NCBI GenBank assembly: GCA_020351775.1
Contig: CP070666.1
Span: forward strand, 4,723,138-4,787,137
Source: Gemmatimonadota bacterium
Lineage (GTDB): Bacteria; Gemmatimonadota; Gemmatimonadetes; Gemmatimonadales; GWC2-71-9
Direction of reading: 5' to 3'
Length of the DNA stretch: 64,000 nucleotides
The stretch's first letter is position 1; each line of letters begins with the position of its first letter. The position numbers and the translations under genes were made by a program. The notes under the pieces were generated by a model. That model was given only the letters and a program-made list of their open reading frames with translations. It was not told the DNA's origin and did no database searches. Shown here one piece after another: positions 16,378-54,773 of this stretch.

Positions 16378-19049
16378 AGCCGTCTCACCTGGTTTCCGTT
16401 TCCCGTCTCGATCCGACTATGGATCTCGAGTAGCAGATCTTGAGCCTTCTGAAAGTTGGGCGCGTCCTCAAGCGCACGCAGCACCGCACGCCGAGCGTTT
16501 TCGATATCACCCGCATCGAAGTAGACGCGGGCCAGTTGGTACTGTGCTTCGGCCCGGTCGACGGGATTGAGCGCCAGGACCGCCTTGCGTTCCCGGATCG
16601 CTCTGGTCCACTCACTCAGTCCAGCGTACAGCTCGGCGAGCTTCAGGTGCAGATCAATACCCATCGGATCGATGTACACGGCCTGTTGCAGTGCCGCTGC
16701 CGCACCGCGTCTATCATTCAGCGCCTCGCGCAACTCCGCCAGTTCCATGCGGGCTGCGTAGTTGCGCTCGTTGATCGCTGTCAAGTGATCCAGCTCGGCC
16801 GCTGCCCGCTCAAGTCCACCCTGTTCCTTGTAGATCCGGGCTAGATGCCAGTAGGGACTGTCATCGCCGGCATATTCGGGAAACAGCGATTTGGCTTGCT
16901 CCAGGTAGCCAATCGCCTCGTGTGGCCTGCCCTGCTCTACCAGCAAGGTCCCCATAGCGAGCTGTGCCACGAAGTCGTCGGGTTGCCGGCGCGCCCGGTC
17001 GGCAATCTCCTCGCGAGATCGATGCGGCGGGTCATCCGACGACGCAGTGCTGCGCAGTGCCGCCAGCGGGCCCGCGAACCGCTCCTGCAGATAGTCGTCG
17101 AATACGGTGTCGAACTCCTCGATATCCATTGCGAGCACGGATTCGAACGCGCTCGTTATGGACCGACCGGCACCGAACTCCTCGAGCAGCTCGACCAGCG
17201 TCTGGAACCCGTGTTCGCGCTCTATCAACTCGCATACAAGTGAAGCCTGATAGTAGGAGTGCCCGATCTGTTCCGGATAAGCGGGCCGCATGAAACCGTC
17301 ATTCAACTTGCTCACCGGGACCAGCCTCCCCTGGAGGTAGGCCACCAGGAAACCGGGATTCACATCGTCTCCCCAACCCGGTCGGGCCCGGCGTTCCTCG
17401 TACACGGCCAGGCCCTCGGTGAACCACCGTGGCACGCGATGGTCACTGATACCCATGTGGAAGGTGTGCGCCAACTCGTGCCACAGAGTCGAGCCCCAGT
17501 TGAAATCTCCCGTCTCGCGAGCCGATGGTGAGTCCATTGCAACCACCGGACCGAAGCTCACGCCCAAGGCTCCCAGGCCCGTCAAGCCGACGGTGCGTAC
17601 CGAGAAATCTTCGTGGTTGGGGAACACCTCCACCCTGACGGGAGTCGCCGCCCGGAAACCGTACTTCGCGGCCAAGCTATCATACGCTTCCTCCGCCAAC
17701 TCCCCGAAGTAAAGCGACAGCAACCCCGCCTCACCCGCATCCATGGCGAAGTTGAACCGCTCGGTGCTCGTCTCGGTGTACTGAACCAGGGTATCGAGTA
17801 GATCCAGAGTATTCTTGGTCCAGGGATCGTGCGGATCACCCTCGAACGCAGTCTCCAGGTTTTCCCGTCCGGCCCGCATCCGGCCGGTCCGCATCTGGTT
17901 GATGCCGAGTAGCGTGAAGCCACGCCAGGAAGTGGGGTCTAGCTCCACCGCACGCTGTGCGAACTCGACTGCCTCAGCGTACAACCTGGTGCGAACGCAC
18001 GCCTCGGCAAGCGTATTGTAGAGTCCACCATACCGCGGATTGAGCTGCAGTACTTGGCGCTCTGCGGCGGCGAACCCTGCTTCGTCACCTTGCAGGAACC
18101 GGGCAGCCGCCAGAACCGACAAGGCCTCGAGCGATGTCGGGTTCACGTCCAGCGCACGCTCGAGCTCCACGAGCGCCCTCTGGTAGTCTTCACTCTCGAG
18201 CAGCAACTGGGCCAGAAACACCCTGGCTGCAACCAGATTGGGGTTCACTTCGAGAGCCCGCTCGGCCGTGTCGAAGGCGCCGGGCATGCCCGCCGATTTG
18301 AACGTGCGTGCGAGCCCCAGTAGCGCACGGGGATGACCTGGGCTCTGTTCCAGAATGGCGGCGAATGTCTCCTCCGCCAAGTCGAAGCGGTACCGTTCAA
18401 GAAACAACTCACCAACCCAGACCTGCGGTTCTAGATCACCCGGATCAGCGGCGATCGCCTCGTCGTATGCCCGCAGCGCGTCTTGAGCCAGTTGCCAATC
18501 CTGCAGGCTCAGGTAACGTACCGCTCCTGCCACCGCCCTCAGTTCGGCGGCTGTGAGGCCTTCACCCCGATTGTAAACGTCGATGAATCGGTCGAACTCC
18601 CGGCGCGCAGCTTCAATTGCACCGCTCTCGTAGTGTTGCGCCGCCAAGTTGTAGCGGGCCAGCAGGCTGTCGGACGCGGCGCCGCTTGCCCGTCGGAACG
18701 CGTCCTCGGCGCCCTCCCGATCACCCCTGAGATAGAGCACTTCGCCCAAGGCGTTGGCCAGTTCCGCCGAGTTGGGATTCCCGCGGGAGAAGCGCTGCGC
18801 TGCCTGCTGCGCGTCTTCGTAGCGACCGACCTCGACGAGAGCCGCGACGAGACCGCGCGCCGCCTCGGCCGACGACGTCTGGCGCCGCGTGACACGGGAG
18901 AACATCGCTATGGCATCATTGTAGCGGCCCGAGCGGAATGCAGTTCGGGCCTCTGTAACGGTCTGCGCATGGAGCGGTTGCCAAGGCAGCGAGAGGACGA
19001 GAAACAGCCAAACGGTCGCGGGCCGAATGTACTGCTGGGGGCTACTCAT
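16374..19049 (-). CDS. Exported TPR-repeat protein with central zinc peptidase (MA-clan/gluzincin-like) domain
   Basis: Signal peptide; many TPR-like helices; LWHELAHTFH (HExxH) followed by PRWFTEGLAVYEE. Confidence 0.85.
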   Translation of the reverse strand: MSSPQQYIRPATVWLFLVLSLPWQPLHAQTVTEARTAFRSGRYNDAIAMFSRVTRRQTSSAEAARGLVAALVEVGRYEDAQQAAQRFSRGNPNSAELANALGEVLYLRGDREGAEDAFRRASGAASDSLLARYNLAAQHYESGAIEAARREFDRFIDVYNRGEGLTAAELRAVAGAVRYLSLQDWQLAQDALRAYDEAIAADPGDLEPQVWVGELFLERYRFDLAEETFAAILEQSPGHPRALLGLARTFKSAGMPGAFDTAERALEVNPNLVAARVFLAQLLLESEDYQRALVELERALDVNPTSLEALSVLAAARFLQGDEAGFAAAERQVLQLNPRYGGLYNTLAEACVRTRLYAEAVEFAQRAVELDPTSWRGFTLLGINQMRTGRMRAGRENLETAFEGDPHDPWTKNTLDLLDTLVQYTETSTERFNFAMDAGEAGLLSLYFGELAEEAYDSLAAKYGFRAATPVRVEVFPNHEDFSVRTVGLTGLGALGVSFGPVVAMDSPSARETGDFNWGSTLWHELAHTFHMGISDHRVPRWFTEGLAVYEERRARPGWGDDVNPGFLVAYLQGRLVPVSKLNDGFMRPAYPEQIGHSYYQASLVCELIEREHGFQTLVELLEEFGAGRSITSAFESVLAMDIEEFDTVFDDYLQERFAGPLAALRSTASSDDPPHRSREEIADRARRQPDDFVAQLAMGTLLVEQGRPHEAIGYLEQAKSLFPEYAGDDSPYWHLARIYKEQGGLERAAAELDHLTAINERNYAARMELAELREALNDRRGAAAALQQAVYIDPMGIDLHLKLAELYAGLSEWTRAIRERKAVLALNPVDRAEAQYQLARVYFDAGDIENARRAVLRALEDAPNFQKAQDLLLEIHSRIETGNGNQVRRL

Positions 19050-20044
19050 CGAGGCTCAACACCTTTCTCCCGCTCTCTGATCGCGCGAGAGACGCGGGCC
19101 AGCTCGAGCAGCAACCCCTCCAATTCCTGTCCGTACACCTCCGGATCTATCGATTCCTTGCGGCCGCGCAGATCGGCGACAGCCTGCTGCAATACGCGTT
19201 GTCTGCTCAGCAGCTCAGCCAGTTGCGGATCCGCAGTAGCGACTGCCGTAGCCGCATCTGCTCCCTCCAACACGAACTGACGGGCCAGTGCTCCGTCAGC
19301 TACGCTCGGATCTGGTTCGGCACTGCCTTCTCCGTCGCCGTTGTCGTCCAGCTGAGCGTGCTCTGTGAGGATACGGTCATCACTCTCGTACGCCCGCCGC
19401 AATTCGAGCCTGGCATAGTTAAATGCCTCGAGAACTGACACTCGCTCGTCCTTATCCACATCCGCTACGTCTTCCGCAAAAGCCTGCACGAAATACTGAC
19501 AGAAGACGGTCTCATTGCGTTCGAACGGCGATTTCGTGGCGGTAATGATGGTCCTCCCGGGCGCAGAGAGTTCCTTGACGAAGTCTCCACTGGCACTGGT
19601 TGTGTTGACCAGGACAACTCGCTGTGCCGTGAATTGATCCAGTACTATCGCGAAGTCGGCAGCAGACATATCAGGGCCGGGCAAGCTGAACAGCGATCGG
19701 TCTCCCTGATAGCTGCCGTGCCCTATGAGCAGGATCAGCACCCCTTCACCGGGCTCCAGACCGGCAGCCAACTCCGCCAGCGTTCCCTGCACATTCTCCT
19801 TCGTAGACCTGGCAGTTATGCTTTCGAAATCGAGCGATTCCTTCTCAGCCAGGTACGTTATGTTTGCTTCCGGGACAGCGAACCGCTGCCGTGCGGCATC
19901 GATGAGAGTCATGGCCCACCGATGGAATTTCTCGCGGTGGGCCTGATCTCCACCAAGACCGCTCACAATGACAAGGTGGGTCTGGGACGCGGCCGGCTGC
20001 GCGAGCGCGAGCAGTGATAGTGCGAGCGCTGCGAACGGCTTCAT
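19046..20044 (-). CDS. Exported caspase/legumain (clan CD, C13-like) fold protein with C-terminal coiled coil
   Basis: Start at ATG 20044 (ATGA overlap) gives signal peptide MKPFAALALSLLALAQPAAS; LLIGHGS and VNTTSASG occupy the His and Cys positions of clan CD proteases. Confidence 0.6.
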   Translation of the reverse strand: MKPFAALALSLLALAQPAASQTHLVIVSGLGGDQAHREKFHRWAMTLIDAARQRFAVPEANITYLAEKESLDFESITARSTKENVQGTLAELAAGLEPGEGVLILLIGHGSYQGDRSLFSLPGPDMSAADFAIVLDQFTAQRVVLVNTTSASGDFVKELSAPGRTIITATKSPFERNETVFCQYFVQAFAEDVADVDKDERVSVLEAFNYARLELRRAYESDDRILTEHAQLDDNGDGEGSAEPDPSVADGALARQFVLEGADAATAVATADPQLAELLSRQRVLQQAVADLRGRKESIDPEVYGQELEGLLLELARVSRAIREREKGVEPR

Positions 20045-22335
20045 ATCAGGCCTCGTGCACGGCGGTACCCCCACTCCGTGGCGACGAGCCCAAGCAGCAG
20101 GAAGAACACTATGGGCATGTCCCACAAGTCCTTCTCCTCATAGACCGTTGAGCCGCTTTCCGTGTAGCGGACGTCCTCTGGCAGTGAGCCAACCGTCTGC
20201 GGTGTGTAAAACCTACCGCCGGTCTCCTCAGCCACTCGCCGGAGTAGAGTGGACCGCATTTGAGCGCCGAAGTACTCCTCCACTGGCTCCGCGACTTCGA
20301 CAAAAGAGGTAGCGTTCCCGAGCAACTCACCGTCACGGTTCACCTCAACACTGATTTCGTACAGGCCATTCTCGTCAGCAACGAAGCTCGCCTCGTATTC
20401 GCCATCGCGCTCCACAGTCCACTCCATATCCAATGCCTGCTCCAGGCCAGACGGCGTCGTGACGCGCGCCGTTGCGTGAGCATCATTGACCTTCAGATAA
20501 GCTGAGTCGACCACCTCCGTCGTGATGGTGAGCCTCTCTCCGACCCCAGCCCGATCTTTCGGCACAGCCGCGTGCACCTGGTCCGGCACTGAGCTGACGA
20601 GCCAACGCAACAGCTGACGCCAGAAGGACTCGTGGGTCATGTCGTCAAGAGGGATATCGGCGTGCATCTGCCAAATCCAAGAGTCCTGCACCGGAAACGC
20701 GACCACCCGACCCCGGCCAAACCGCTGCGCTGCAAGTACGACGACACCCTCGGCTCCGTTTCCGTGACCGGTGAGCAGGGTGCTCGCTCCCGGCTTGACT
20801 TCGAAGACAGGATTCACCGTCGAAAGCGCGGGTAGACCTGCCCAGCGTTCTGCCGATCCCTCGGGCGTCGGCGAGAGCTGAGTGACCGGATGTGAGCGGC
20901 CAGTCGGAGTGAGTTCCACCGACACTTCGCTGAAAAACGTGGAAGAGTCGTTCTCGGGGCGCGGTTCCAGGACGACCGGCAAGATGTTGCTGATCGGAGT
21001 GCCGGCGTACCCGCCCTGACCGAGTGCGTTGCGCCCTCCCAGGGCCAGCAACCCACCACCCCGCTGGCCGACGAACTCAGCGATCATCTCCAGCTGGCCG
21101 TGGGTGAAGAAGCTAGCTTCCACGCTGCCAAGTATGATCCCGCGATACTGGAATAGCTCCTCTCGGGTGGTGGGGAATCCGCCCGCCAACTCATCCGCCT
21201 GTTCGACGTCGTACCGCTGGAATTTGTTGTCCGCTGTACGCTGCAGGATCACCACGTGAAGATTATCGTCCTCCGCGATCGCACGCCTCAGGAACTTGAC
21301 CTCAAACCGGGGTTCACCTTCGAAATAGAGTATCTTCTCTCGACGGTCCCGCACGTGGATTAGAACATCGCGCTCGTTGTTCTCATCGACCAATTCTTCC
21401 AGTTCCGGCAGGATGCGAAAGCGGAACAGACGGGGACCAGTTTCCGTGACCTCGAAATGTGCTCGAACCGTCGTCACCTCACCCTCACCCTGTAGTTCCA
21501 CTGCCTGGGCGCTCACGATCCGGCCGCCATCTTCCACGTTGAGCTGCACCGTCTCGCCACCGAATCCCGTGTGAGTGACCATCACATCCACAGCAACCGC
21601 CGAGCCCTCCAGCACAACACGAGGCGCCTCGACCCGCGCGATCTCGATGTCCCGTTCGAACTGCTCCCGACCGATACCCACAGTATGCACCGGCACACCG
21701 CGACTGCGGAGTTGCAGCACGGATTCCGTCAGCGGATCCTCCGAATTATCGGCTCCGTCTGTGAACACGATCAGGCCTGCCAGTGGCAACGTGGACAGCT
21801 CGCTGCGAGCTTCGTCCAACGCGTGACCCAACCTCGTCTGGCTGCCGGTGAACGTCAGCTCGTCCGAGCCCGATATGCGCTGCAACGATTCTGAGAAACG
21901 GAAGAACCGCAACTTGAAACGTTCGGACAATCCCGTGAGGAGCTCGCTGCCTTCCGGACCGAACTGCTCCCGTATGAACTCGCTGCGTGCCTGCCCTGCG
22001 TCGGCGACCTGCATACTGCGCGAATCGTCCAGCAGGATACCCAGGTAGTTTTCCTGCGGGACCACCGTTGGGACGACCAGCATCGGGCGCAACAGACAGA
22101 ACACCAGGACGGCCAGCACCGACACCCGCAGCACGGCCAGGAGCGCCTTATCGGCGGTACCCAGCTTGCCACCGAGTCTCACATAGCTCAGCAGCGGCGG
22201 AATCACGAGTGCCAGACCAATGACGATGAACAGCAGAACCGGCCATGGTGCATGCAGCACGAACTGCCCGTTGTCAAACACGACGGGACGATATTTGAAC
22301 AAGAACTCGAATACGGTCGCCGGCGGGGATCCCAT
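20041..22335 (-). CDS. Membrane protein with VWA, Ig-like and glutamine-amidotransferase-like (DUF1355-type) domains
   Basis: Two N-terminal TMs, MIDAS DDSRS, FTDGADN, EGEPRFEVKFLRRA, FVGQRGGGLLALGG, QRFGRGRV, C-terminal TM. Confidence 0.75.
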   Translation of the reverse strand: MGSPPATVFEFLFKYRPVVFDNGQFVLHAPWPVLLFIVIGLALVIPPLLSYVRLGGKLGTADKALLAVLRVSVLAVLVFCLLRPMLVVPTVVPQENYLGILLDDSRSMQVADAGQARSEFIREQFGPEGSELLTGLSERFKLRFFRFSESLQRISGSDELTFTGSQTRLGHALDEARSELSTLPLAGLIVFTDGADNSEDPLTESVLQLRSRGVPVHTVGIGREQFERDIEIARVEAPRVVLEGSAVAVDVMVTHTGFGGETVQLNVEDGGRIVSAQAVELQGEGEVTTVRAHFEVTETGPRLFRFRILPELEELVDENNERDVLIHVRDRREKILYFEGEPRFEVKFLRRAIAEDDNLHVVILQRTADNKFQRYDVEQADELAGGFPTTREELFQYRGIILGSVEASFFTHGQLEMIAEFVGQRGGGLLALGGRNALGQGGYAGTPISNILPVVLEPRPENDSSTFFSEVSVELTPTGRSHPVTQLSPTPEGSAERWAGLPALSTVNPVFEVKPGASTLLTGHGNGAEGVVVLAAQRFGRGRVVAFPVQDSWIWQMHADIPLDDMTHESFWRQLLRWLVSSVPDQVHAAVPKDRAGVGERLTITTEVVDSAYLKVNDAHATARVTTPSGLEQALDMEWTVERDGEYEASFVADENGLYEISVEVNRDGELLGNATSFVEVAEPVEEYFGAQMRSTLLRRVAEETGGRFYTPQTVGSLPEDVRYTESGSTVYEEKDLWDMPIVFFLLLGLVATEWGYRRARGLI

Positions 22336-37271: not shown

Positions 37272-39863
37272 TCAGAGACTGGGTTCCTCTGACTTGGGCC
37301 ACACCTCTGTCCAGATGCGCCACGATACCCAACCGCAAAACAGAACCGTGGCTGCAGTGAAGCCGCTGACGCGGAGCATCGCGTTGCCCAGCGCTGCCCT
37401 CGTATCTGGTACCACATCTCCGAGCTCGAATGGGAAGTCGAGCAGAAACTCCGCGTATGCCCCCAATAAAACGAGTCCCAGCAGGGTCACGCCAACCGCT
37501 ACTGCCGTCGCAGTTCGCCGCCAGAACCGACCCAATGCCCCCAGTGCCAACAGTGCCAGCCCCAGAATCCGTACACCCACCAGCCACTCGTGGAATCCGG
37601 CGTTATACCCGTATGTGAGCCTCGCCAGGTCGGTCCAAGCGAATATCGCGACACTTGCTCCAAGTGCCAACATCAAGGGCCATTGCTGGAACGCCCCGTC
37701 CTGCCCGATGTGCCCCGGGAGCGGCGTCCGGCGCCGCAACGCTTCTCGACCGGCGTGCGCAGTCATGTGCGAGTCAGGTCGATCCAACCTGCGATTGGCG
37801 CGATGCGAGCGTGGCGCTGGTTCCTCACGAGCGGACTCGGCAGACTGAGCGATGCCAACGTGTATCTCGGGTGTCGCTCGCGACTCAGCAGCTCTGGCTG
37901 CAGCATCTTCAGGCTGCTTGGCGCCGACGTCCGGCTCTTGGACAATCGCAGTAGGCTCTTCGGACGTATCCGGCACTCCCAGCACCTCCGGCTGCACCGC
38001 TGACAGCGAATCATCCTCCCGTGGCTGCACGGCTTCCGGCGCTGTGACATCCGGAGTGCTCTGAGCGGTTGACCCAGGTTCGTGCGGGACCTCCACGTCG
38101 GCCACCGGCCGTGGGGGTTCTTGCGGCGTCGGCTCGACTCCCAGTAGCTCCTCGACGGATACCGGCACCTTGTGAGTCACGTCAGCGATCGTCCACGGCT
38201 CGATCAACTCGGTTTCTGCAGAATCCGCCCCCGACCGTGGTACTCCCAGTAGGTCTTCGATGGATGGCTCTTTAGAATCGGTCCCGGCCTTCATCTCTTC
38301 GTATTGCGACCAGCTTTCTACCAGCTCGTCCGCCTCGGCTGCCACTCGAGGTGCACCAGTCCCCTGTTCCCGAGCCGCCTGGTCCCTGATGGAGGCTGCA
38401 GATTCCGGCGGTGCCATGGTCTGGCCTTCTTGTGCCGCCGGTTCCTCTGCCTGGGGCCTAACGAGACACTGGTATCCTCCGAACGTCCCGTTTCCCGCGT
38501 TCCGGGGGATCGCCGTGAGCAAGGCCGGCAGCACCGCTCCGTCCTTTGTCCGTAGGCGGATGGGAAGGTTCTTGACGAAGCCATGCTTCTGCACATTCTC
38601 TCCGAACAAGCGAGCGTCCGGAACTGCTGCGTAGAGCTTCCGGGCCTTGACGTTGATCATCTCTTCGCGGTCATAGCCCCACAGTTCTACCGCCGCTTCA
38701 TTCACCTCAGAGATGCGGCCATTCTCACCTGTGAGATAGACCGGATCCAGAGTGTGCTCAAAAAGCGAACCGTACCTCTCCTCGGTTTCGCGCAGCTCCT
38801 GTTCGTCCTGTCTGCTCTTTTTTCTCTCTCGCGCGACGACGAGAGTGTATGTCCGGTTGGCGAAGTCACGTTTGGTGACAGCTACTTCCACAGGAAAACC
38901 ACTGCCGTCACGACGCCGGTGCACCCTGCCACAGACCCACGGACGCTGCACCCTACGCGCCTCCGTCTCGACATCCGCCTCACCGTCCGGACAGCCCAGC
39001 GGGAACTCGACGTCGACATCGTGGATCGTGGAGGAGAGGAGCTGCGTTCGGGGCAGTCCAAGCCACCTCAGTGCCGTCTCATTGGCATCGATGAATCGAT
39101 CGGTCTCTGGATCGATCACGAAAATGGCCTCGTCCGCTTGATCGATCAGCGACCTGAATCTGGAGAGCGATGCCAGCGTCCGCCTGAGACTCGCCATCTC
39201 ACCAGAGAGCTTCTCGATTCGAGCCTCCAGCTCCTCACGCTCGACACGATGCAGCGCCTGCGTCTCACGCACGGCCTGTTCTGTCTTCTGCTGCTGCCTG
39301 CTCTCACGCGCCACTACCAGAGTGTAGGTCCGGTTCGAGTAGCGGCGCTGCGCGACGGCGACCTCAACGGGAAAGCAAGTCCCGTCACGGCGGCGGTGGA
39401 CTCTGTTGCACACCCAGGAGCGGCGCAAATCCCTCGCGTTCCCCGATGGGTCTGACTCAGACTCCGGGTATGCCAGCGGGAACTCGACATCGACGTCGTT
39501 GGTAGTCAGCTGGAGAAGTTCCTGACGGGAAAGGCCAAGCCATCTAAGCGCTGTCTCGTTGGCATCGACAAACCTGTCAGTCTCAGGGTCGATCACAAAG
39601 ATGGCCTCATCCGCCTGATCAATGATGGTCCTGAATCTGGCGTGGGATACCAGAACGTGTTTGAGGCTATCCATCTGCCCTGACAACGTGTCTAGATGTG
39701 CATCCATCTCCTGAGGCTCGACTGGACGGGCCACCTCTGGACCGGTCACTGCCCGTGACGGACGGGGAGGTGTGACCTTCCCCAATCCCTCGGTTGAGAT
39801 CCGGCCGCGGTGTGGCGGCTTCCACCCTGTTGCTGGTTTTTCGTCGCTGTTTCTTTCTGACAT
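37272..39863 (-). CDS. Triple-PAS protein with long acidic/Pro-rich linker and C-terminal 4-TM domain, no output domain
   Basis: PAS signatures RFRTIIDQADEAIFVID...RRRDGTCFPVEV (two copies) and RYGSLFEHTLDPVYL...; ~250 aa low-complexity linker; four hydrophobic segments at the C-terminus. Confidence 0.85.
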   Translation of the reverse strand: MSERNSDEKPATGWKPPHRGRISTEGLGKVTPPRPSRAVTGPEVARPVEPQEMDAHLDTLSGQMDSLKHVLVSHARFRTIIDQADEAIFVIDPETDRFVDANETALRWLGLSRQELLQLTTNDVDVEFPLAYPESESDPSGNARDLRRSWVCNRVHRRRDGTCFPVEVAVAQRRYSNRTYTLVVARESRQQQKTEQAVRETQALHRVEREELEARIEKLSGEMASLRRTLASLSRFRSLIDQADEAIFVIDPETDRFIDANETALRWLGLPRTQLLSSTIHDVDVEFPLGCPDGEADVETEARRVQRPWVCGRVHRRRDGSGFPVEVAVTKRDFANRTYTLVVARERKKSRQDEQELRETEERYGSLFEHTLDPVYLTGENGRISEVNEAAVELWGYDREEMINVKARKLYAAVPDARLFGENVQKHGFVKNLPIRLRTKDGAVLPALLTAIPRNAGNGTFGGYQCLVRPQAEEPAAQEGQTMAPPESAASIRDQAAREQGTGAPRVAAEADELVESWSQYEEMKAGTDSKEPSIEDLLGVPRSGADSAETELIEPWTIADVTHKVPVSVEELLGVEPTPQEPPRPVADVEVPHEPGSTAQSTPDVTAPEAVQPREDDSLSAVQPEVLGVPDTSEEPTAIVQEPDVGAKQPEDAAARAAESRATPEIHVGIAQSAESAREEPAPRSHRANRRLDRPDSHMTAHAGREALRRRTPLPGHIGQDGAFQQWPLMLALGASVAIFAWTDLARLTYGYNAGFHEWLVGVRILGLALLALGALGRFWRRTATAVAVGVTLLGLVLLGAYAEFLLDFPFELGDVVPDTRAALGNAMLRVSGFTAATVLFCGWVSWRIWTEVWPKSEEPSL

Positions 39864-41843
39864 GCGCTACACAACCTCAGCCCAACGGGTTCTGCGGCAC
39901 CCCACTGCTGCCAGTAGGCCACCGCCCACCTGTCGCGTGGTTTGGACTGCCCCCGCGGAATACACCAGAAGGCACCGTTGCTGAGGCTCACCTGATCGAG
40001 ATCCTGCTAAGGTACCACGGCAATTCCGCGGGCGGAATGGTCCCCCCTTAGTAAGTGGTTCGGGGCTCGCGCCGTTCACCGCGCTCGCCCCAGGCGCCAC
40101 AGAAACGCCGCAAGCCCAACACAACCCAACACGGTCACAGCGGTGAACTCCGACGCCCGCCGCCTAGCGCTGTCCAGCTCGGCGTCGGATACGACGTCCC
40201 GGAGGCCGAACGGGAAATCGAGCAGGTAGGCGCCATAGGTGAAGAGCATGACGAGCGCCACGCCTAGGCATACGACAGCGAGCGCTCTGGCAGCACCCTT
40301 ACCTCGTGGACCCGCGATCCCGAGGGCCACTAGGCCGCCCGCCAGGAAGCGCAGCGCATACTGCCACTCCTGAACACCAATGTTGTACGGAAAGCCGGCC
40401 ACTGCCGCGTCAGTCCAGCCAACCAACGAGAGTACCACCCCGAGCGTCAGCAGCGACCACCAGAAGACCGGCCGCCTCTTGGCGGCGACTGGCGGAGGAG
40501 CGGGACGGCGTTGCCACGGGGCTGCCCCTACTGGATCTTCCTTGATCCGACCGGCGTCGACGCATTTGCGAGATGACCGGTGCGCCGATCGAGTTGTGAC
40601 GGGTGCGCCCGCGTGGACCTCGTAGCCGTGAGCGGAGCCCATCAATGGACTGAACACCACGCCCGCATGTTGATCTTTGACGGGGCCAGCTCCTGGCGTG
40701 CTTTGCGAAGGTCCACCTAACTCACGTGGCCGTTTGGGATCGTCGGGTGCGACCGCCGGGGTGACATCGTCTTCGACAGGTCCGGCGCCCGCGCGGTCCT
40801 CCGGGATGTCACTGGCCAGTTCCTCTGATGCGTGACACGGTTCCTCCTCCCACACTGGGTCCGAAGACGCCTCCTCCCAATCCGGCATACTGATGACACC
40901 ATGTGCCTCCAGATCACCGTACGATGCAGCAGCCTGCTCGATCTCCCGGGATTCGGAGCGCTCCGCTGGCGCATCCTCATTGTCTGCCACGCTCGCTGCA
41001 GTTGCCTTGTGGTCCGCCGATTCGGCAACGGAACCATCCTCACAAGGTCGCTCAATATCCTCCTGCGCCGCTCGTTCGATCTCGCCTGCTTCTTCCGAGC
41101 AAGTGAAGGTCTCCGACGGGTCCGCTCCGCAGCGGATGAGACACTGGTATCCGCCAATGGCGCCGTCGCCTGTGTGCCTCAATGTCGCCGTCAACAGACC
41201 GAGGAACACCGAGCCGTCACGGGCACGGAACTGGATCGGGAAATCGCGGACGTAACCGCTCTCTTCGACAATTTCCTGGAACCTGCGGATATCTTGAGCG
41301 TCGGTGTAAAGAGCCCGAGCTTCGAGGCCGATGAGGTCCTGCTCGGGATACCCGAACCGCTCGACTGCAGCCCGATTGACTCTGGCGATCCGGCCATCGC
41401 GTGTGGTGATGTAGATGGCATCGTGAGATAGGTCGAAGAGACTGTGGTAGTCTCCCTCCGCCTCACGCAACGCGTGCTCAGCCCGCTGGCGGCGCTTGCT
41501 CTCACGAGCGACAACGAGTATGAACGTGCGGTCCGCGAAGCGGCGCTGCGCCACGGCTACGTCCACCGGAAAACAGGTGCCGTCCCTGCGACGGTGAACA
41601 CCTTCGCCGTGAATCCACGGTCGATCCAGGTTCCTGGTATCGGTGACGTGGTCCGCTCGAGTCTCCCTGTATTCCAAGGGGAACTCGACGTGCACGTCAT
41701 TCACGGTGAGTTGCAGCAACCGGCTTCGTGCTAGGCCGAGCCACCGCAGCGCAGTCTCATTGACGTCGACGAAGCGTCCGGTGGCCGCGTCGATCACGAA
41801 CATGGCCTCGCCCGCCTGGTCGATCAGCGTCCTGAAACGGGCC
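38828..41843 (-). repeat. Three closely related PAS-coding units (about 38828-39163, 39309-39642, 41504-41843)
   Basis: Shared peptide RFR(S/T)(L/I)IDQA(D/G)EA(I/M)FVID...F(V/I)D(A/V)NETALRWLGL...DV(D/H)VEFPL...VHRRRDG(T/S)xFPV(E/D)VAV...RT(Y/F)xLVVARE. Confidence 0.85.
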
Positions 41844-42097
41844 AACGGGGCCAGCGTGCGTCTCAGCTTGGTCAACTCGGCTGAGAGTCGTTCGACCTGC
41901 CTCTCGAGTTCGTGCCGGGAGACCCGGTCGACCGCGTCAGACAGATCGGCATGGGGCGAGGGCGAGCCTGTCACGCCAGGATGCTCATCAGCACCCTGCC
42001 CAGAAGGCCCTGATTTATCCGGCCCGTCGACCGGTAGCTGCCCAGCATCGGGATCTATCATTGGTTGGCCGCCAAGCGTGCGCCTGCGTTCCGACAT
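40076..42097 (-). CDS. Double-PAS protein with acidic linker and C-terminal 4-TM domain (paralogue of 37272-39863)
   Basis: Both proteins start MSER; homologous PAS units; shared C-terminal motifs WTD, YNxGxxEW and LLDFPFxLxDVV. Confidence 0.85.
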   Translation of the reverse strand: MSERRRTLGGQPMIDPDAGQLPVDGPDKSGPSGQGADEHPGVTGSPSPHADLSDAVDRVSRHELERQVERLSAELTKLRRTLAPLARFRTLIDQAGEAMFVIDAATGRFVDVNETALRWLGLARSRLLQLTVNDVHVEFPLEYRETRADHVTDTRNLDRPWIHGEGVHRRRDGTCFPVDVAVAQRRFADRTFILVVARESKRRQRAEHALREAEGDYHSLFDLSHDAIYITTRDGRIARVNRAAVERFGYPEQDLIGLEARALYTDAQDIRRFQEIVEESGYVRDFPIQFRARDGSVFLGLLTATLRHTGDGAIGGYQCLIRCGADPSETFTCSEEAGEIERAAQEDIERPCEDGSVAESADHKATAASVADNEDAPAERSESREIEQAAASYGDLEAHGVISMPDWEEASSDPVWEEEPCHASEELASDIPEDRAGAGPVEDDVTPAVAPDDPKRPRELGGPSQSTPGAGPVKDQHAGVVFSPLMGSAHGYEVHAGAPVTTRSAHRSSRKCVDAGRIKEDPVGAAPWQRRPAPPPVAAKRRPVFWWSLLTLGVVLSLVGWTDAAVAGFPYNIGVQEWQYALRFLAGGLVALGIAGPRGKGAARALAVVCLGVALVMLFTYGAYLLDFPFGLRDVVSDAELDSARRRASEFTAVTVLGCVGLAAFLWRLGRAR

Positions 42098-42142
42098 TCA
42101 ACTGCCAATCCAGACCGCGCGCCCCGCCCGGCCTGGCAATCC

Positions 42143-42171
42143 AAAATACCCCTAGAAGCTTGCTACGTCAG
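42143..42171 (-). promoter_or_regulatory. Putative sigma70-type promoter for the PAS-4TM genes
   Basis: Minus strand CTGACG-N17-TATTTT, about 45 nt upstream of ATG 42097. Confidence 0.35.
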
Positions 42172-42174
42172 GGT

Positions 42175-42199
42175 TTATCCACATCTCGCCTGTGGATAA
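42175..42199. promoter_or_regulatory. Inverted pair of perfect DnaA boxes
   Basis: TTATCCACA (42175-42183), 7-nt spacer, TGTGGATAA (42191-42199). Confidence 0.7.
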
Positions 42200-42517
42200 G
42201 CAAGAGACATGCCCCACCCTACAGCGGCTAATCCGGTGTGATTGGCGATTCTGGCGGATCGGTGCAGCAGGACGGCTGGGTGGGATGGGCGAGACATCGT
42301 AGCCGCAGTCGGCCCGAACCCGAAGTCAACAGTGTAAGTTACTTGTTTGCAAATAGTTAGCTGTACAAGCCTGACTGACCGACTAAACCGTCCTTCACCT
42401 CGGGTACTGTAGAGAGGATCCGCCAGTGTGCGGTTTCCGCAACGATCTTCCCGATCGTTTGGTACGCCCTTCGAGCATCGGATGGGGCATCCAGACCCCG
42501 CCGGGAGGGGACCCGGT

Positions 42518-42526
42518 TGTGGACAA
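42518..42526 (-). promoter_or_regulatory. DnaA-box-like site (one mismatch)
   Basis: TGTGGACAA, i.e. TTGTCCACA on the minus strand, in the same intergenic region. Confidence 0.4.
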
Positions 42527-42579
42527 CCACTCCATCTCGTTACGGGCCCGTGATATACGCGACGGGGCGGCGCCAATGC

Positions 42580-43710
42580 CTATTGCAGGCCCACGAGTTC
42601 AGCGTTCGATTCAGTGTCCTTCATGTATGTGAGAACCGCGTTCATCTGATCAAATGGCGTCATCCCACCCAGTTGCCGGCGCAGAGCATTGGACGTGGTA
42701 AGGGCCGCCTCAGAAAGGAGCAGCTCCTCTCGCCGCGTCGCACTCTGATCCAAGTCGATCGCCGGAAATAGCCTACGCTCGGCCAGCTCGCGGCTGAGCA
42801 CAAGCTCACTATTGCCGGTACCTTTGAACTCCTCGAAGATCACCTGGTCCATTCGTGAGCCAGTATCCACCAGGGCAGTTCCCACAATTGTCAACGACCC
42901 CCCCCCTTGCGCTGCATCGATCTTGCGGGCACTTCCGAGGAACCGTTTCGGTTTCTCCAGCGACATCGCATCCAGTCCTCCGGACAGAGTTCGCCCACTC
43001 CCCGACTCGACCGTGTTGTGGGCGCGAGCCAGCCTCGTGATCGAGTCGAGGATGATCACTACATCATCGCCCTGCTCGACGCGCCGGCGCGCCCGCTGTA
43101 ACGTCATCTCTGCGACGGCAACATGTCGTTCTGCCCGCTGGTCGAAGCTAGATGCTATCACCTCACCGAATCCGCAGACTTCCATCTCCGTCACTTCCTC
43201 GGGTCGCTCGTCTATCAGCAGGATCAGTAGGGTGCACTGCGGGTAGTTTGTCACTACACCTTCGGCTATGGCCTGGAGCACCATGGTCTTACCGGCTTTG
43301 GCCGGCGCGACGATCAACGACCGCTGTCCCTTTCCGAACGGACAGAACAGATCGATGATCCGATTGGTGTAGTCCGGTTTACCCCTCCGCATCAAGCCAC
43401 AGTCGAGTACGAGTTGCTCGTCGGGGTGTACAGCCCTCAACTTGGTGAACTCGCCTCTATCTGCGACGGCGCTGGGATCGAGCCCGTTGACCAGATCCAC
43501 GCGTACCAACCTGGGGCTCTTGCCCCGCTTACCGGGCTTCCCCACCTCACCTGTTATCGCGTCACCAGTGCGGAGCTGCAATCTGTCGATCATCCGCCGG
43601 CCTACGTAGACATCGTTCTTGCCGGCTAGGTAGCCATCTTCACGCCGGCGGATGAACCCGGCGCCGTTGCCAAGTACCTCGAGTACGCCGAGTTGTTCCG
43701 ACTCGGTCAT
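42580..43710 (-). CDS. rho: Transcription termination factor Rho, short form lacking the N-terminal helical domain
   Basis: GVLEVLGNGAGFIR (OB fold), Walker A APAKAGKT, LLIDERPEEVTEM, Walker B LDSITRLARA, SGRTLSGGLD, TGSRMDQVIFEEFKGTGNSEL, ATRREELLL. Confidence 0.92.
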   Translation of the reverse strand: MTESEQLGVLEVLGNGAGFIRRREDGYLAGKNDVYVGRRMIDRLQLRTGDAITGEVGKPGKRGKSPRLVRVDLVNGLDPSAVADRGEFTKLRAVHPDEQLVLDCGLMRRGKPDYTNRIIDLFCPFGKGQRSLIVAPAKAGKTMVLQAIAEGVVTNYPQCTLLILLIDERPEEVTEMEVCGFGEVIASSFDQRAERHVAVAEMTLQRARRRVEQGDDVVIILDSITRLARAHNTVESGSGRTLSGGLDAMSLEKPKRFLGSARKIDAAQGGGSLTIVGTALVDTGSRMDQVIFEEFKGTGNSELVLSRELAERRLFPAIDLDQSATRREELLLSEAALTTSNALRRQLGGMTPFDQMNAVLTYMKDTESNAELVGLQ

Positions 43711-43736
43711 CACACAAACACCGTTTCAGCAATCAT
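43710..43736 (-). other. 8-codon leader ORF (MIAETVFV) overlapping the rho start
   Basis: GGAGAG SD-like motif, ATG at 43736; its TGA (43712-43710) overlaps the rho ATG as TGATG. Confidence 0.4.
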
Positions 43737-44026
43737 TCTCTCCAAACATACCTTTCGCACAGATTGTAGGGACCGTAGCATATAGCCATCATTCCTGCCG
43801 AGTCCTTGAGCAGATAGCTGCAGGCCATACTCTGGGAACCCTGGGGTCGCTACCGTCGTATTGCCGGGCGTTCGGGCAGGTCAGCTCTTTGGAACAACCA
43901 CACCTGCCAACTTGGGAGCGGGTGGCTCGTCGTGCAACCGGAAGTACCGCAAAGATAAGCGCTTAGTCCGGTTCGCGCGAGTGCGGCGCCCCCGGACGTC
44001 TAGCCCAATCCGTCTGTCCCGCCAAA

Positions 44027-44066
44027 TTGCTCGCCGGACGCTTCCTTCAGGTCCGGCGGCGAGCAA
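44027..44066. other. Strong intergenic stem-loop upstream of rho
   Basis: TTGCTCGCCGGAC-GCTTCCTTCAG-GTCCGGCG(GCG)AGCAA. Confidence 0.5.
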
Positions 44067-44577
44067 GCAGGTCGGTCACACCGTCAGCAACCATCCATCC
44101 CGTGTTCATGACAGCCGAGTCGTAGTCGTGCTGCGCGGCTGCCCTCTACTCAAAAGCCTATCAGCCACGTGTGGGACAATTGCAGCCCGCCCTGTACCCG
44201 ACTGGCTATCGCATCCTCTCAGAACTCGATCACTCACGCGTGTGGAGACCGGTCTCATTCACAGCGCAACGCCGAGCTGAGATTGCGGTTGCCTCGGCTC
44301 GCTAGGACCCGAGCATCCCGCCCCGCTCGCTGAAGCGAATTCACGTCGCCTCGAAGTGGTTCAGGAGACCTGCCGATGGTACTGGCTCAGCTCTCTGGCG
44401 GTGTGCACCAGAAGACATAGATTATGTGTAGTCAACCGCGGGCGTTGGCCTATTAATGATCGAGATATTGACCGGCGATTGCCAGTGCTGGAGTGCAGCG
44501 GGATCGCCGTTTGTGTTTCACCCCCCGGTCACTACCTCTAGAGGCTACCCCGGCTTTGATTGGTCTGGAGGCGCAAT

Positions 44578-45843
44578 ATGAAGGACGAGCGTAAGACCAA
44601 AGGGCAGCTCATAGAGGAGTTGACCATGTTACGCCGCCAGGTTGCGGAACTCCAGGGGTTCGCGTCCGAGCGGGTCCAGGTCGAAGACGCCTTGAAGGAG
44701 AGCGAATCACGGCTGCGGCAGATAATCGACCTCGTACCCCACATGATCTTCGTGAAGGACTGGGACGGCCGTTTCATCTTGACCAACAAAGCGGTCGCTG
44801 AGGCCTACGGAACAACGGTGGAAAAGCTAACCGGAACGCGGCATTCCGAACACCACAAGGACGAGGCAGAACTCAAACACATGCTCAATGACGATCAGGA
44901 GGTCATTTCGGAAGGAGTCCCCAAATTCATTCCGGAAGAGACCTTCGTGGACGCGATCGGAAAGCGGCGTGTGCTACAGACGATAAAGATCCCATTCAGT
45001 ATGTCAGGAATCGACCAGCCTGCTGTTCTGGGCGTGGCACTGGACATAACAGATCGTCTTCGTGCCGAAGAGGAACGGCGTAGGCTGGAGGCCAGGATCC
45101 AGCAGGCGCGCAAGCAGGAGAGCCTCGCCGCTCTCGCCAGTGGCATCGCCCATGATTTCCACGAGCTGGTAACCAACATACTCGACAATGCCGCGCTCGC
45201 CAGGGCAATGCGGTCTCCAGAGGGGCGAGAATTGCTGGGGAACATAGAGCGAGCTGCGCGGCGCGCGGCGGATCTGACCAACCAGATGTTCGTCTATGCT
45301 GGTGAGGTCCGGTTCGAGGTATGCGCTCTGTTTCCCAATCGTCTGGTAGAAGACATGGCACATGTCCTCGACGCTATCGTGTCCAGCAAGGCGGAGCTGC
45401 GTTACGATCTATCGTCCGAATCACTGCCGATTCTGGCCGACCCCGGAAGACTACGTCAGGTCGTCATGAACCTGGTGACCAACGCCTCAGAGGCGTTGGG
45501 CGATGAGCCGGGTTCGATCACGGTGTCGACCGGGCTCGTGGACGCTGGGCGCGAGTATCTCGATTCGGCCTACATCGACGACGATCTACCGGAAGGCCGA
45601 TACGCTTTCATAGAGGTGACCGACTCCGGCCAAGGAATGGACGCCGCGGAACAAGCGAAGATGTTCGATCCTGTGTTTTCGCGGAAGTTCGCCGAGGGTG
45701 GTCTGGGCTTGGCGGCAGTCCTGGGTGTGGTCCGCGGTCATAAGGGGACGATCAAGGTCGATAGTGCTCCAGGACGAGGGACTACGATCAGGGTCCTGTT
45801 CCCGACTCCTCCACCGGTTCCGTTTGGCAGCGGGTCTGGCTAG
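44578..45843 (+). CDS. Cytoplasmic PAS-PAC histidine kinase (no receiver)
   Basis: N-terminal MKDERKTKGQLIEEL coil, PAS IFVKDWDGRF, H-box GIAHDF, N-box MNLVTNASEA, DSGQGM, GLGLAAVLGVV. Confidence 0.88.
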   Translation: MKDERKTKGQLIEELTMLRRQVAELQGFASERVQVEDALKESESRLRQIIDLVPHMIFVKDWDGRFILTNKAVAEAYGTTVEKLTGTRHSEHHKDEAELKHMLNDDQEVISEGVPKFIPEETFVDAIGKRRVLQTIKIPFSMSGIDQPAVLGVALDITDRLRAEEERRRLEARIQQARKQESLAALASGIAHDFHELVTNILDNAALARAMRSPEGRELLGNIERAARRAADLTNQMFVYAGEVRFEVCALFPNRLVEDMAHVLDAIVSSKAELRYDLSSESLPILADPGRLRQVVMNLVTNASEALGDEPGSITVSTGLVDAGREYLDSAYIDDDLPEGRYAFIEVTDSGQGMDAAEQAKMFDPVFSRKFAEGGLGLAAVLGVVRGHKGTIKVDSAPGRGTTIRVLFPTPPPVPFGSGSG

Positions 45844-54477: not shown

Positions 54478-54540
54478 CGTGAACCTCCTCGGCTGTGCGC
54501 CACTACCAAGCGCTGGTGATCAGTTGTCACCAGCACCAAA

Positions 54541-54556
54541 GGCAAGCGCGCTGCCA
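54541..54556 (-). promoter_or_regulatory. Sigma54 (-24/-12) promoter of the TPR lipoprotein gene
   Basis: Minus strand TGGCAGCGCGCTTGCC = GG-N10-GC with TGGCA and TTGC cores, about 65 nt upstream of ATG 54477. Confidence 0.7.
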
Positions 54557-54652
54557 GCCGGCGAGGTTCCAGCCTGAACCTCCTAAAACCATGTTGGATA
54601 ATAGGTTACAGCGAAAGACCCTAGCCCGGCCGAGCACCGTGACGGGTGTCAT

Positions 54653-54701
54653 GTGTCCAATTGGACACCTAGATCCACACGGCATGTGTCCACTCGGACA
54701 C
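54653..54701. promoter_or_regulatory. Tandem palindromic enhancer (UAS) for a sigma54 activator
   Basis: GTGTCCAATTGGACAC (54653-54668) and GTGTCCACTCGGACAC (54686-54701), 33 bp apart, 100-145 bp upstream of the -24 element. Confidence 0.7.
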
Positions 54702-54773
54702 GCGCATCTGCCCCCCACCCTCTCAGTCTCGCTCGACTCGGCCACACCGCCCAGCCCTAGCTCCGGAGCTGTA

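Follow-up and report, generated by a model that had tools for sequence, protein, structure and literature searches.

Gene setting and DnaA boxes

The window analysed here, a stretch of 64,000 nucleotides, belongs to a Gemmatimonadota MAG whose assembly consists of about 588 contigs joined by 100-N spacers. On its minus strand, a short rho paralogue lies directly upstream of a gene encoding a PAS-4TM protein. The two genes are separated by a 482-bp non-coding spacer (42098-42579, from the rho stop at 42580 to the PAS ATG at 42097), and all three DnaA boxes considered in this work lie inside it. Boxes were scored against the consensus TTATCCACA and, in relaxed form, against TTWTNCACA.

The box scan of the window returned the perfect consensus TTATCCACA on the plus strand (42175-42183, 9/9) and, after a 7-nt spacer of sequence TCTCGCC, its exact complement TGTGGATAA (42191-42199), which reads TTATCCACA on the minus strand and again matches at 9/9 positions. 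The third box, TGTGGACAA at 42518-42526, reads TTGTCCACA on the minus strand with one mismatch at position 3, and is a lone 9-mer without an inverted partner. These elements and their neighbours, including those introduced in later sections, are the following:

37272-39863, minus strand: PAS-4TM paralogue, following the first PAS-4TM gene
40076-42097, minus strand: PAS-4TM gene, 673 aa, first gene downstream of the box element
42141-42149, minus strand: conserved block CCAAAATAC (minus strand GTATTTTGG), putative -10 (TATTTT) of a weak sigma70-type promoter or 5'-UTR element
42175-42183, plus strand: left DnaA box TTATCCACA, perfect consensus, at about +5 to +13 of the predicted sigma54 transcript
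42191-42199, minus strand: right DnaA box (TGTGGATAA on the plus strand), perfect consensus, at about -11 to -3 of the predicted sigma54 promoter
42200-42213, minus strand: candidate sigma54 (RpoN) -24/-12 element, GGCATG-TCTC-TTGC, aimed at the PAS-4TM gene
42227-42238, no strand assigned: conserved block GCTAATCCGGTG, with genus consensus GCTAACCCGTTG in the alignment, adjoining the candidate -24 element on its upstream side
42336-42361, no strand assigned: AT-rich patch with an IHF-consensus core CAA-N4-TTA (core 42350-42359), in all five complete genus spacers
42518-42526, minus strand: third DnaA box, oriented like the right box, 54 nt beyond the rho stop
42580-43713, minus strand: short rho paralogue (NCBIfam Rho NF006886, 478.7 bits, alignment starting at profile position 51)

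Our re-reading of the sequence agrees with a preliminary description of this DNA, which had reported the pair with its 7-nt gap at 42175-42199 and the one-mismatch box at 42518. The AT-rich stretch that it placed at about 42336-42361 is also present, though modest (GC 0.42 over 60 nt, 70% AT in the best 30 nt). Profile searches found PAS domains alone in the PAS-4TM proteins, with no DNA-binding or kinase output domain, and no gene for a DNA-binding regulator is encoded beside the box site. Neither iterons nor further dyads in the rho-PAS spacer are conserved among relatives; an imperfect dyad in the AT patch of G000 was dropped, as relatives do not keep it.

Chance expectation

Perfect DnaA boxes are not in themselves unusual in this genome, with 16 in the 5.45-Mb assembly, an ordinary number for 9-mers of like composition (mean 12). 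Only the pair described here lies close together among the 16, and the probability that any two of them fall within 25 bp is about 1e-3. The genome also contains 554 perfect inverted repeats with 9-nt arms, among which the expected number carrying a DnaA-box arm is 0.0016. When DnaA-box clusters are ranked by box content, the rho-PAS locus scores highest in the assembly, and the pair is unlikely to have arisen by chance. A second convergent pair, TTTTCCACA-N20-TGTGGAAAA at genome position 3524054, was rejected as a conserved DnaA site: it follows just after the tmRNA gene, and the DNA differs there in every relative.

Conservation within and beyond the genus

The region was compared by BLAST with 40 relatives, and in three same-genus genomes the comparison left one small conserved island within the spacer, exactly over the palindrome. 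Four same-genus spacers were then aligned with that of the window and a sixth genome was added. The box pair is kept in six of eight same-genus genomes, while the surrounding spacer has largely diverged, and in the same fraction (6/8) the exact 13-mer TGTGGATAAGCAA is present as a single copy at the rho-PAS locus. The motif was not seen in the other two genus members, G001 and G003. The extended motif also turns up with one mismatch, as TGTGGATATGCAA, in G000 and G003, but these copies were discarded, being at unrelated loci and in one case inside an ORF.

The two arms behave differently. The right box is invariant at 9/9 positions in the six genomes, and the invariant stretch on this side reaches 15 nt, longer than the 9-nt box. 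On the left, the core TCCACA is invariant, while positions 1 and 3 vary (TTATCCACA, TTGTCCACA, ATTTCCACA or GTTTCCACA). The arms are 7 nt apart in four genomes and 6 nt apart in two, giving an extended conserved motif TTnTCCACA-N6/7-TGTGGATAAGCAAGAGnCATGCC. Further upstream, the third box is kept as TGTGGA(C/G)AA in five genus genomes, 314-332 bp from the right box, and the IHF-like core CAA-N4-TTA is kept in the five genomes with a complete spacer, 149-162 bp from the right box.

Outside the genus the convergent pair is absent: 77 further genera of the family lack it, as do 79 other rho loci of Gemmatimonadota. An element linked to rho throughout the phylum is ruled out, given that the pair occurs at only the same-genus locus among 80 Gemmatimonadota rho loci. 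Since discrete blocks and the distances between them are kept in the genus and the pair is absent from other genera, we conclude from these alignments that the box element is real, under selection and specific to the genus. Among the findings that the preliminary description had named as speaking against it were a failure of the boxes to be conserved in relatives and a role of the palindrome purely as an RNA hairpin. As for the former, same-genus genomes conserve the pair together with the third box and the AT patch, as islands in a spacer that has otherwise diverged.

The latter, a hairpin belonging to the rho 3' region or to the PAS 5' leader and serving as terminator, processing or stability signal, found no support either. 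A 9-bp stem with a 7-nt loop is possible, and a 6-bp core can pair in all six genomes. However, there are no compensatory changes: the left-arm variants break the pairing, and the right arm is constant. The predicted fold does not stand out from those of shuffled sequence (z = -0.88), no U-tract follows on either strand, and an Rfam search of the spacer gave no match. If the sigma54 start proposed below is right, only half of the palindrome would be transcribed. We consider an RNA hairpin highly improbable.

DnaA as the candidate binder

The genus DnaA can be judged from its own gene. The dnaA promoter, GGGGTCAAGGTTGACTTTTCCACAT-N9-TACAAT, is the same in 7/7 genus genomes and carries a TTTTCCACA box between its -35 and -10, which, judged by sequence, is the classical layout of autoregulation. 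In DnaA domain IV, we compared the residues that we take to be the DNA contacts of the E. coli protein: R399, D433, H434 and H439 are identical, while T435 is replaced by S and P423 by V. Because the dnaA-promoter box is invariant, TGTGGA/TCCAC boxes occur in the dnaA-dnaN spacer and domain IV is conserved, the DnaA of this genus evidently reads TTnTCCACA. The positions that vary in the left arm of the pair also vary in known DnaA boxes: at position 3, the relaxed consensus allows W, and the dnaA-promoter box and the third box carry T or G.

The variable 6-7 nt spacing, the variation of the left arm beside a fixed right arm, and the occurrence of the third box as a lone half-site are more easily explained by a monomeric binder than by a dimeric repressor, and DnaA is the most economical candidate for the protein that would bind the pair. 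The competing view is that another transcription factor, whose operator happens to resemble a DnaA box, regulates the PAS-4TM promoter without DnaA. The palindromic form, the overlap with a promoter and the confinement to one genus are what a local operator typically shows; a scan of very many windows should turn up some 9-mers that look alike by chance; and the 15-nt invariant right arm exceeds the box. Nevertheless, both arms match the consensus at 9/9 positions, for which the expectation is the 0.0016 palindromes given above; the 6-7 nt arm spacing and the lone third site are ill-suited to a fixed dimer; and the invariant extension of the right arm is explained by the putative sigma54 element. 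Neither an adjacent DNA-binding regulator nor DNA-binding domains in the PAS proteins offer such a factor, and with a conserved domain IV, DnaA would be expected on a perfect box in any case. Weighing both sides, we regard an unrelated operator as unlikely and keep DnaA as the candidate binder.

The chromosomal origin

In this assembly dnaA lies on another contig than the rho-PAS locus, at the contig edge. The dnaA-dnaN spacer of the genus, 229 bp long, aligns throughout in all genus members. It contains tandem TGTGGA... boxes after the dnaA stop together with opposed ...TCCAC(A/G) boxes, then a box-like TTnTCCAGATATCAA and, some 13 nt beyond it, the tract CTACTAnnnCTACTA, which does not vary (TAC TAG TAC TAC, with TAG repeats on the other strand), followed by a stretch of 73% AT before the dnaN ATG. 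This architecture of boxes, trio-like tract and AT stretch is conserved in 7/7 genus genomes. The basal unwinding system of bacterial origins has been described as a DnaA box (with at most 2 mismatches), 0-16 bp, at least 3 NAN trios (consensus 3'-GAT-5') and an AT-rich unwinding region (PMC8287927); the dnaA-dnaN spacer has the same order of box, spacer, trios and AT stretch. Its boxes are degenerate compared with the perfect rho-PAS pair.

The near-complete genome G025, from the same order, presents the same dnaA-dnaN architecture, with a perfect box that precedes dnaA by about 90 nt, and its cumulative GC skew over 400 kb is V-shaped with a minimum about 26 kb from dnaA. For the genome of the window, a genome-wide skew is meaningless, the file being contigs joined by N spacers; the same-genus 'chromosome' CP070792.1 is probably made of joined contigs too. 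On this layout and its conservation, we are confident in assigning the oriC of the genus to the dnaA-dnaN spacer.

The possibility that the rho-PAS cluster is itself the chromosomal origin, or a second, accessory one, has several points in its favour: no box cluster of the assembly is better, an AT-rich patch lies between its boxes, and with dnaA at a contig edge oriC could in principle be missed. It also has one formal box-trio match, TTATCCACA followed by 11 nt and GAT AAG CAA GAG, i.e. (NAN)x4. That match, however, is made up of the second box and the promoter block, and none of its triplets equals 5'-TAG. No lasting change of GC-skew sign occurs at 42 kb within the contig, the cluster has three boxes only, and the pair is missing in 77 other genera. 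The conserved origin layout lies instead in the dnaA-dnaN spacer, in the 7/7 genus genomes and in the same-order genome, where the skew turns about 26 kb from dnaA. An origin at the rho-PAS locus is thus very improbable, which bears out the preliminary description, where a true oriC had been judged less likely.

A candidate sigma54 promoter

On the PAS-sense strand, the sequence beside the right box reads GGCAYG-N4-TTGC and contains the GG-N10-GC core of sigma54 promoters. Of the 12 positions defined in TGGCACG-N4-TTGCW, 10-11 agree in 6/6 genus genomes, in each of which TTATCCACA follows directly:

G000: GGCATG-TCTC-TTGC, then TTATCCACA
G007: GGTACG-CCTC-TTGC, then TTATCCACA
G002: GGCATG-TGTC-TTGC, then TTATCCACA
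G004: GGCACG-TGTC-TTGC, then TTATCCACA
G006: GGCATG-GCTC-TTGC, then TTATCCACA
G005: GGCATG-CCTG-TTGC, then TTATCCACA

In a single GC-rich genome such a pattern is not rare (about 0.017 expected per spacer strand), and it shows no genome-wide enrichment, so the case for sigma54 rests on the conservation of the consensus positions across species. The genome encodes rpoN (434 bits, above the cut-off) and at least 16 sigma54-activator domains, with 18 Sigma54_activat matches, 15 of them full-length. Elsewhere in the window, at 54478-54773, a second GG-N10-GC promoter, TGGCAG-CGCGC-TTGCC, is preceded by dyads and an AT patch in the same layout.

We consider a sigma54 -24/-12 promoter beside the right box to be moderately probable. 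If this assignment is right, transcription would start near 42188, between the two boxes in their 7-nt spacer and some 90 nt ahead of the MSE... start codon. Counted from there, the right box would occupy -11 to -3 and the left box +5 to +13, so that the pair would lie across the start, which is the position of an operator. No conserved dyad that could serve as an activator binding site (UAS) was found upstream, where the IHF-like core and the third box are the only conserved elements.

A sigma70 promoter and terminator scan of the spacer returned nothing. By inspection, a sigma70-like candidate can be read on the minus strand as CTGACG (42167-42172) placed 17 nt before TATTTT (42144-42149), with 8/12 matches in G000 only and a -35 that is poorly conserved in the genus; it may be a second, weak promoter. 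Measured from it, the pair would sit at about -38 to -62, an activator-type position. The preliminary description had the pair abutting a PAS-4TM promoter of this kind. That the pair adjoins a promoter-like element holds, but the -35 proposed there is weak and the sigma54 element (10-11/12, 6/6 genomes) is the likelier one.

The AT-rich patch contributes a further element. In G007 it is a full match to WATCAANNNNTTR (AATCAACAACTTA). The genome encodes one HU-like protein and, besides, one contig-truncated protein that scores best against IHF models, though below their cut-offs. In sigma54 promoters the IHF site is usually 40-90 bp upstream; here, the IHF-like core is about 160 bp upstream of the candidate promoter (about -160), which is unusually far. 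By its sequence and place, the patch fits the architecture of a sigma54 promoter as well as that of a datA/DARS-type site.

Proposed regulation of the PAS-4TM genes

The previous observations lead to the following proposal. The rho-PAS spacer would carry a genus-conserved, non-origin DnaA-box cluster, in which DnaA binding gates a probably sigma54-dependent promoter of the PAS-4TM genes. We see the chances of this reading as evenly balanced. Mechanistically, the two convergent perfect boxes are placed directly downstream of the sigma54 element and would span about -11 to +13. As a monomeric binder of consensus boxes, DnaA would occupy the pair and hinder the sigma54 RNA polymerase in binding or opening. 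We infer repression as the probable direction because of the position of the pair across the start site. Expression of the PAS-4TM sensor would then follow free DnaA, i.e. the replication or growth status of the cell. With a third box about 320 bp upstream and an IHF-like bend about midway, a third DnaA could join by looping.

As the strongest DnaA sites of the assembly are found here and the origin boxes are degenerate, the locus would inevitably also soak up some DnaA. Several points weigh against the gating proposal: the restriction of the element to one genus, with the motif not seen in G001 and G003; the frequency of sigma54-like matches in a single GC-rich genome; the lack of a recognised UAS; the unusual distance of the IHF-like core; the activator-type geometry that the weak sigma70-type promoter would give; and the expectation that, in a very large scan, sites of other factors will sometimes look like DnaA boxes.

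Relation to DARS and datA

The same features could describe a locus that acts on DnaA itself, controlling the DnaA cycle as E. coli DARS or datA do, with the promoter either incidental or serving to clear the site by transcription. In E. coli, DARS reactivates ADP-DnaA, and datA brings about IHF-dependent hydrolysis of ATP-DnaA, or titration. Read directly, E. coli DARS1 is TTATCCACT-N5-TGTGGATAA-N3-TGTGTATTA and lies in the bioD-uvrB promoter region. Head-to-head boxes are described as the prominent feature of DARS, and in DARS2 an IHF site and additional boxes lie within about 400 bp (PMC5742627, PMC8682772). The rho-PAS pair has the opposed orientation of the DARS core boxes I and II, as in DARS1, and in the manner of DARS2 and datA it is accompanied by an IHF-like core and another box, all within about 330 bp. 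Like DARS, it is intergenic and promoter-associated, and it provides the strongest DnaA sites of an assembly whose oriC boxes are degenerate.

The differences are also considerable. The spacing of the pair is 6-7 nt, compared with 5 in DARS1. Box III, which in DARS stands beside box II in the same orientation, has no counterpart here: GCAAGAGnCATGCC at that place is not box-like and is better read as the sigma54 promoter, and GCAAGAGACATGCC after the right box fits no box at any offset. There is no recognisable Fis site. A profile search of the genome found nothing over the cut-off for Hda, the RIDA partner, so that an E. coli-type ADP-DnaA cycle is no more than conjectural in this organism. 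Moreover, such systems have been described only in E. coli and close relatives, while the present element belongs to one genus. Taken together, a DARS- or datA-type function appears rather unlikely.

In datA, a single IHF site is needed among the boxes, and the essential boxes share one direction. At the rho-PAS locus, the right box and the third box do point the same way with the IHF-like core between them, but the left box is opposed, so that the pair departs from the datA arrangement, and the one protein that scores best against IHF models falls below their cut-offs. Like datA and the DnaA-box clusters (DBCs) of B. subtilis, the locus combines non-origin, predicted high-affinity boxes that are conserved in close relatives and would be able to titrate DnaA; it differs in having only three boxes over 350 bp.

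A more specific form of this idea can be drawn, in which a DARS-/datA-like element exists outside Proteobacteria, composed of a head-to-head perfect pair, an IHF-type bend and a distal box, and sigma54 transcription from inside the pair periodically strips DnaA from it. We hold this to be quite improbable. Were it true, an environmental signal would feed directly, via a sigma54 activator, into the replication-initiation potential of the cell.

Implications

Non-origin DnaA-box clusters and DnaA-controlled promoters are already well known, and a specialist would presumably not be greatly surprised by the rho-PAS cluster, whose function is proposed here from sequence. However, the control of DnaA outside the origin, by titration, reactivation or its role as transcription factor, has been worked out almost wholly in E. 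coli, B. subtilis and Caulobacter. A literature search found no work on a Gemmatimonadota origin or DnaA, nor any in which DnaA acts at a promoter of the sigma54 type. The rho-PAS locus offers a clean, phylogenetically footprinted non-origin cluster in this phylum, and its three predicted DnaA sites around the start of a sensor operon, away from the origin, suggest a link between replication status and expression.

If DnaA gates a sigma54 promoter, this would be an undescribed combination, tying an unusual pair of PAS-4TM sensors to replication status. Control of the DARS/datA type would reach beyond enterobacteria should the site act on DnaA itself. In either reading, the element is a short, well-defined DNA fragment open to test.

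Comparison with known promoters

The gating of a sigma54 promoter by DnaA would bring together features of two known classes. The first comprises sigma54 promoters with an IHF-assisted upstream activator, such as the nifH, Pu and glnHp2 types, with which the locus shares the GG-N10-GC core, an AT-rich IHF-like site upstream, and rpoN and activator ATPases in the genome. It differs from them in that no activator dyad was recognised and DnaA boxes occupy the start region.

The second class is that of DnaA-regulated promoters, including E. coli dnaA, nrdAB and mioC and the regulons of B. subtilis and Caulobacter. There, as at the rho-PAS locus, consensus boxes overlap or adjoin the promoter, and the initiator doubles as a transcription factor, a role that DnaA would have here too. 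In contrast to these examples, the promoter is apparently of the sigma54 type with boxes that would straddle the start, and two PAS-4TM sensor genes would be controlled instead of a gene of replication or nucleotide metabolism.

Predicted replication origin at dnaA-dnaN

The assembly that contains the window is given as one 5.51-Mb contig. It was made by linking about 588 contigs through spacers of 100 N, and the first ~360 of these contigs run from longest to shortest. Because these contigs were joined artificially, whole-genome skew or distance measures on this file are meaningless. The same-genus "chromosome" CP070792.1, which is 69% complete, was probably built in the same way, from joined contigs.

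On its sequence features, the dnaA-dnaN spacer is the predicted oriC of the genus (local coordinates within a locus elsewhere in the assembly are bracketed here and below):

2007986-2009566 of the assembly (L001, 1477-3080), outside the window: predicted oriC and dnaA promoter region

The spacer contains degenerate DnaA boxes in tandem and opposed orientation, the box-like sequence TTnTCCAGATATCAA, an AT-rich stretch and a DnaA-trio-like tract, CTACTAnnnCTACTA, that is invariant in the genus. Equally invariant is the dnaA promoter, TTGACT-17-TACAAT, whose own spacer encloses a TTTTCCACA box. This architecture was also seen in one same-order genome, whose GC skew turns near dnaA.

Other DnaA boxes

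A second convergent box pair is found downstream of the tmRNA gene:

3524054-3524091 of the assembly (L141, about 1555-1592), outside the window: TTTTCCACA-N20-TGTGGAAAA

It lies ~35 nt past this gene, which encodes the tag ANTDLALAA, and past the gene's terminator hairpin. The DNA 3' of ssrA is different in every genus relative, and the pair was therefore rejected as a conserved DnaA site; by the same sequence comparison the region is variable and probably a hot spot for integration.

Within the window, a third perfect box, TTATCCACA, occurs at 19452-19460, inside an ORF on the minus strand (19046-20125). It stands alone and probably arose by chance.

Surroundings of the short rho paralogue

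At 42230-42319, directly upstream of the candidate sigma54 promoter, the plus strand is strongly G-rich (GC skew +0.24 to +0.47), and therefore the minus-strand RNA downstream of the short rho paralogue would be C-rich and G-poor. Such an RNA would resemble a Rho-utilisation (rut) site, and the stretch may be a Rho-dependent terminator of the paralogue's own transcript. On its other side, an unusually long divergent intergenic region (43714-44559, 846 bp) separates the paralogue from a PAS histidine kinase (44560-45843); a long leader of the rho gene or a regulatory RNA could lie within it.

A tandem DnaA/Hda-like protein

An ordinary Hda was not found in the genome, which encodes the following protein:

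4295061-4297019 of the assembly (L002, 1501-3459), outside the window: 652-aa protein with two tandem DnaA/Hda-like AAA+ modules

It lacks DnaA domain I and the DNA-binding domain IV, and a comparable match is present in the same-order genome G033 (open frame of 733 aa). Compared with known families, it scores 347 bits against TIGR00362, spread over two stretches, and 125 bits against the Hda model, under that model's cut-off; this tandem AAA+ protein might be a regulator of DnaA.
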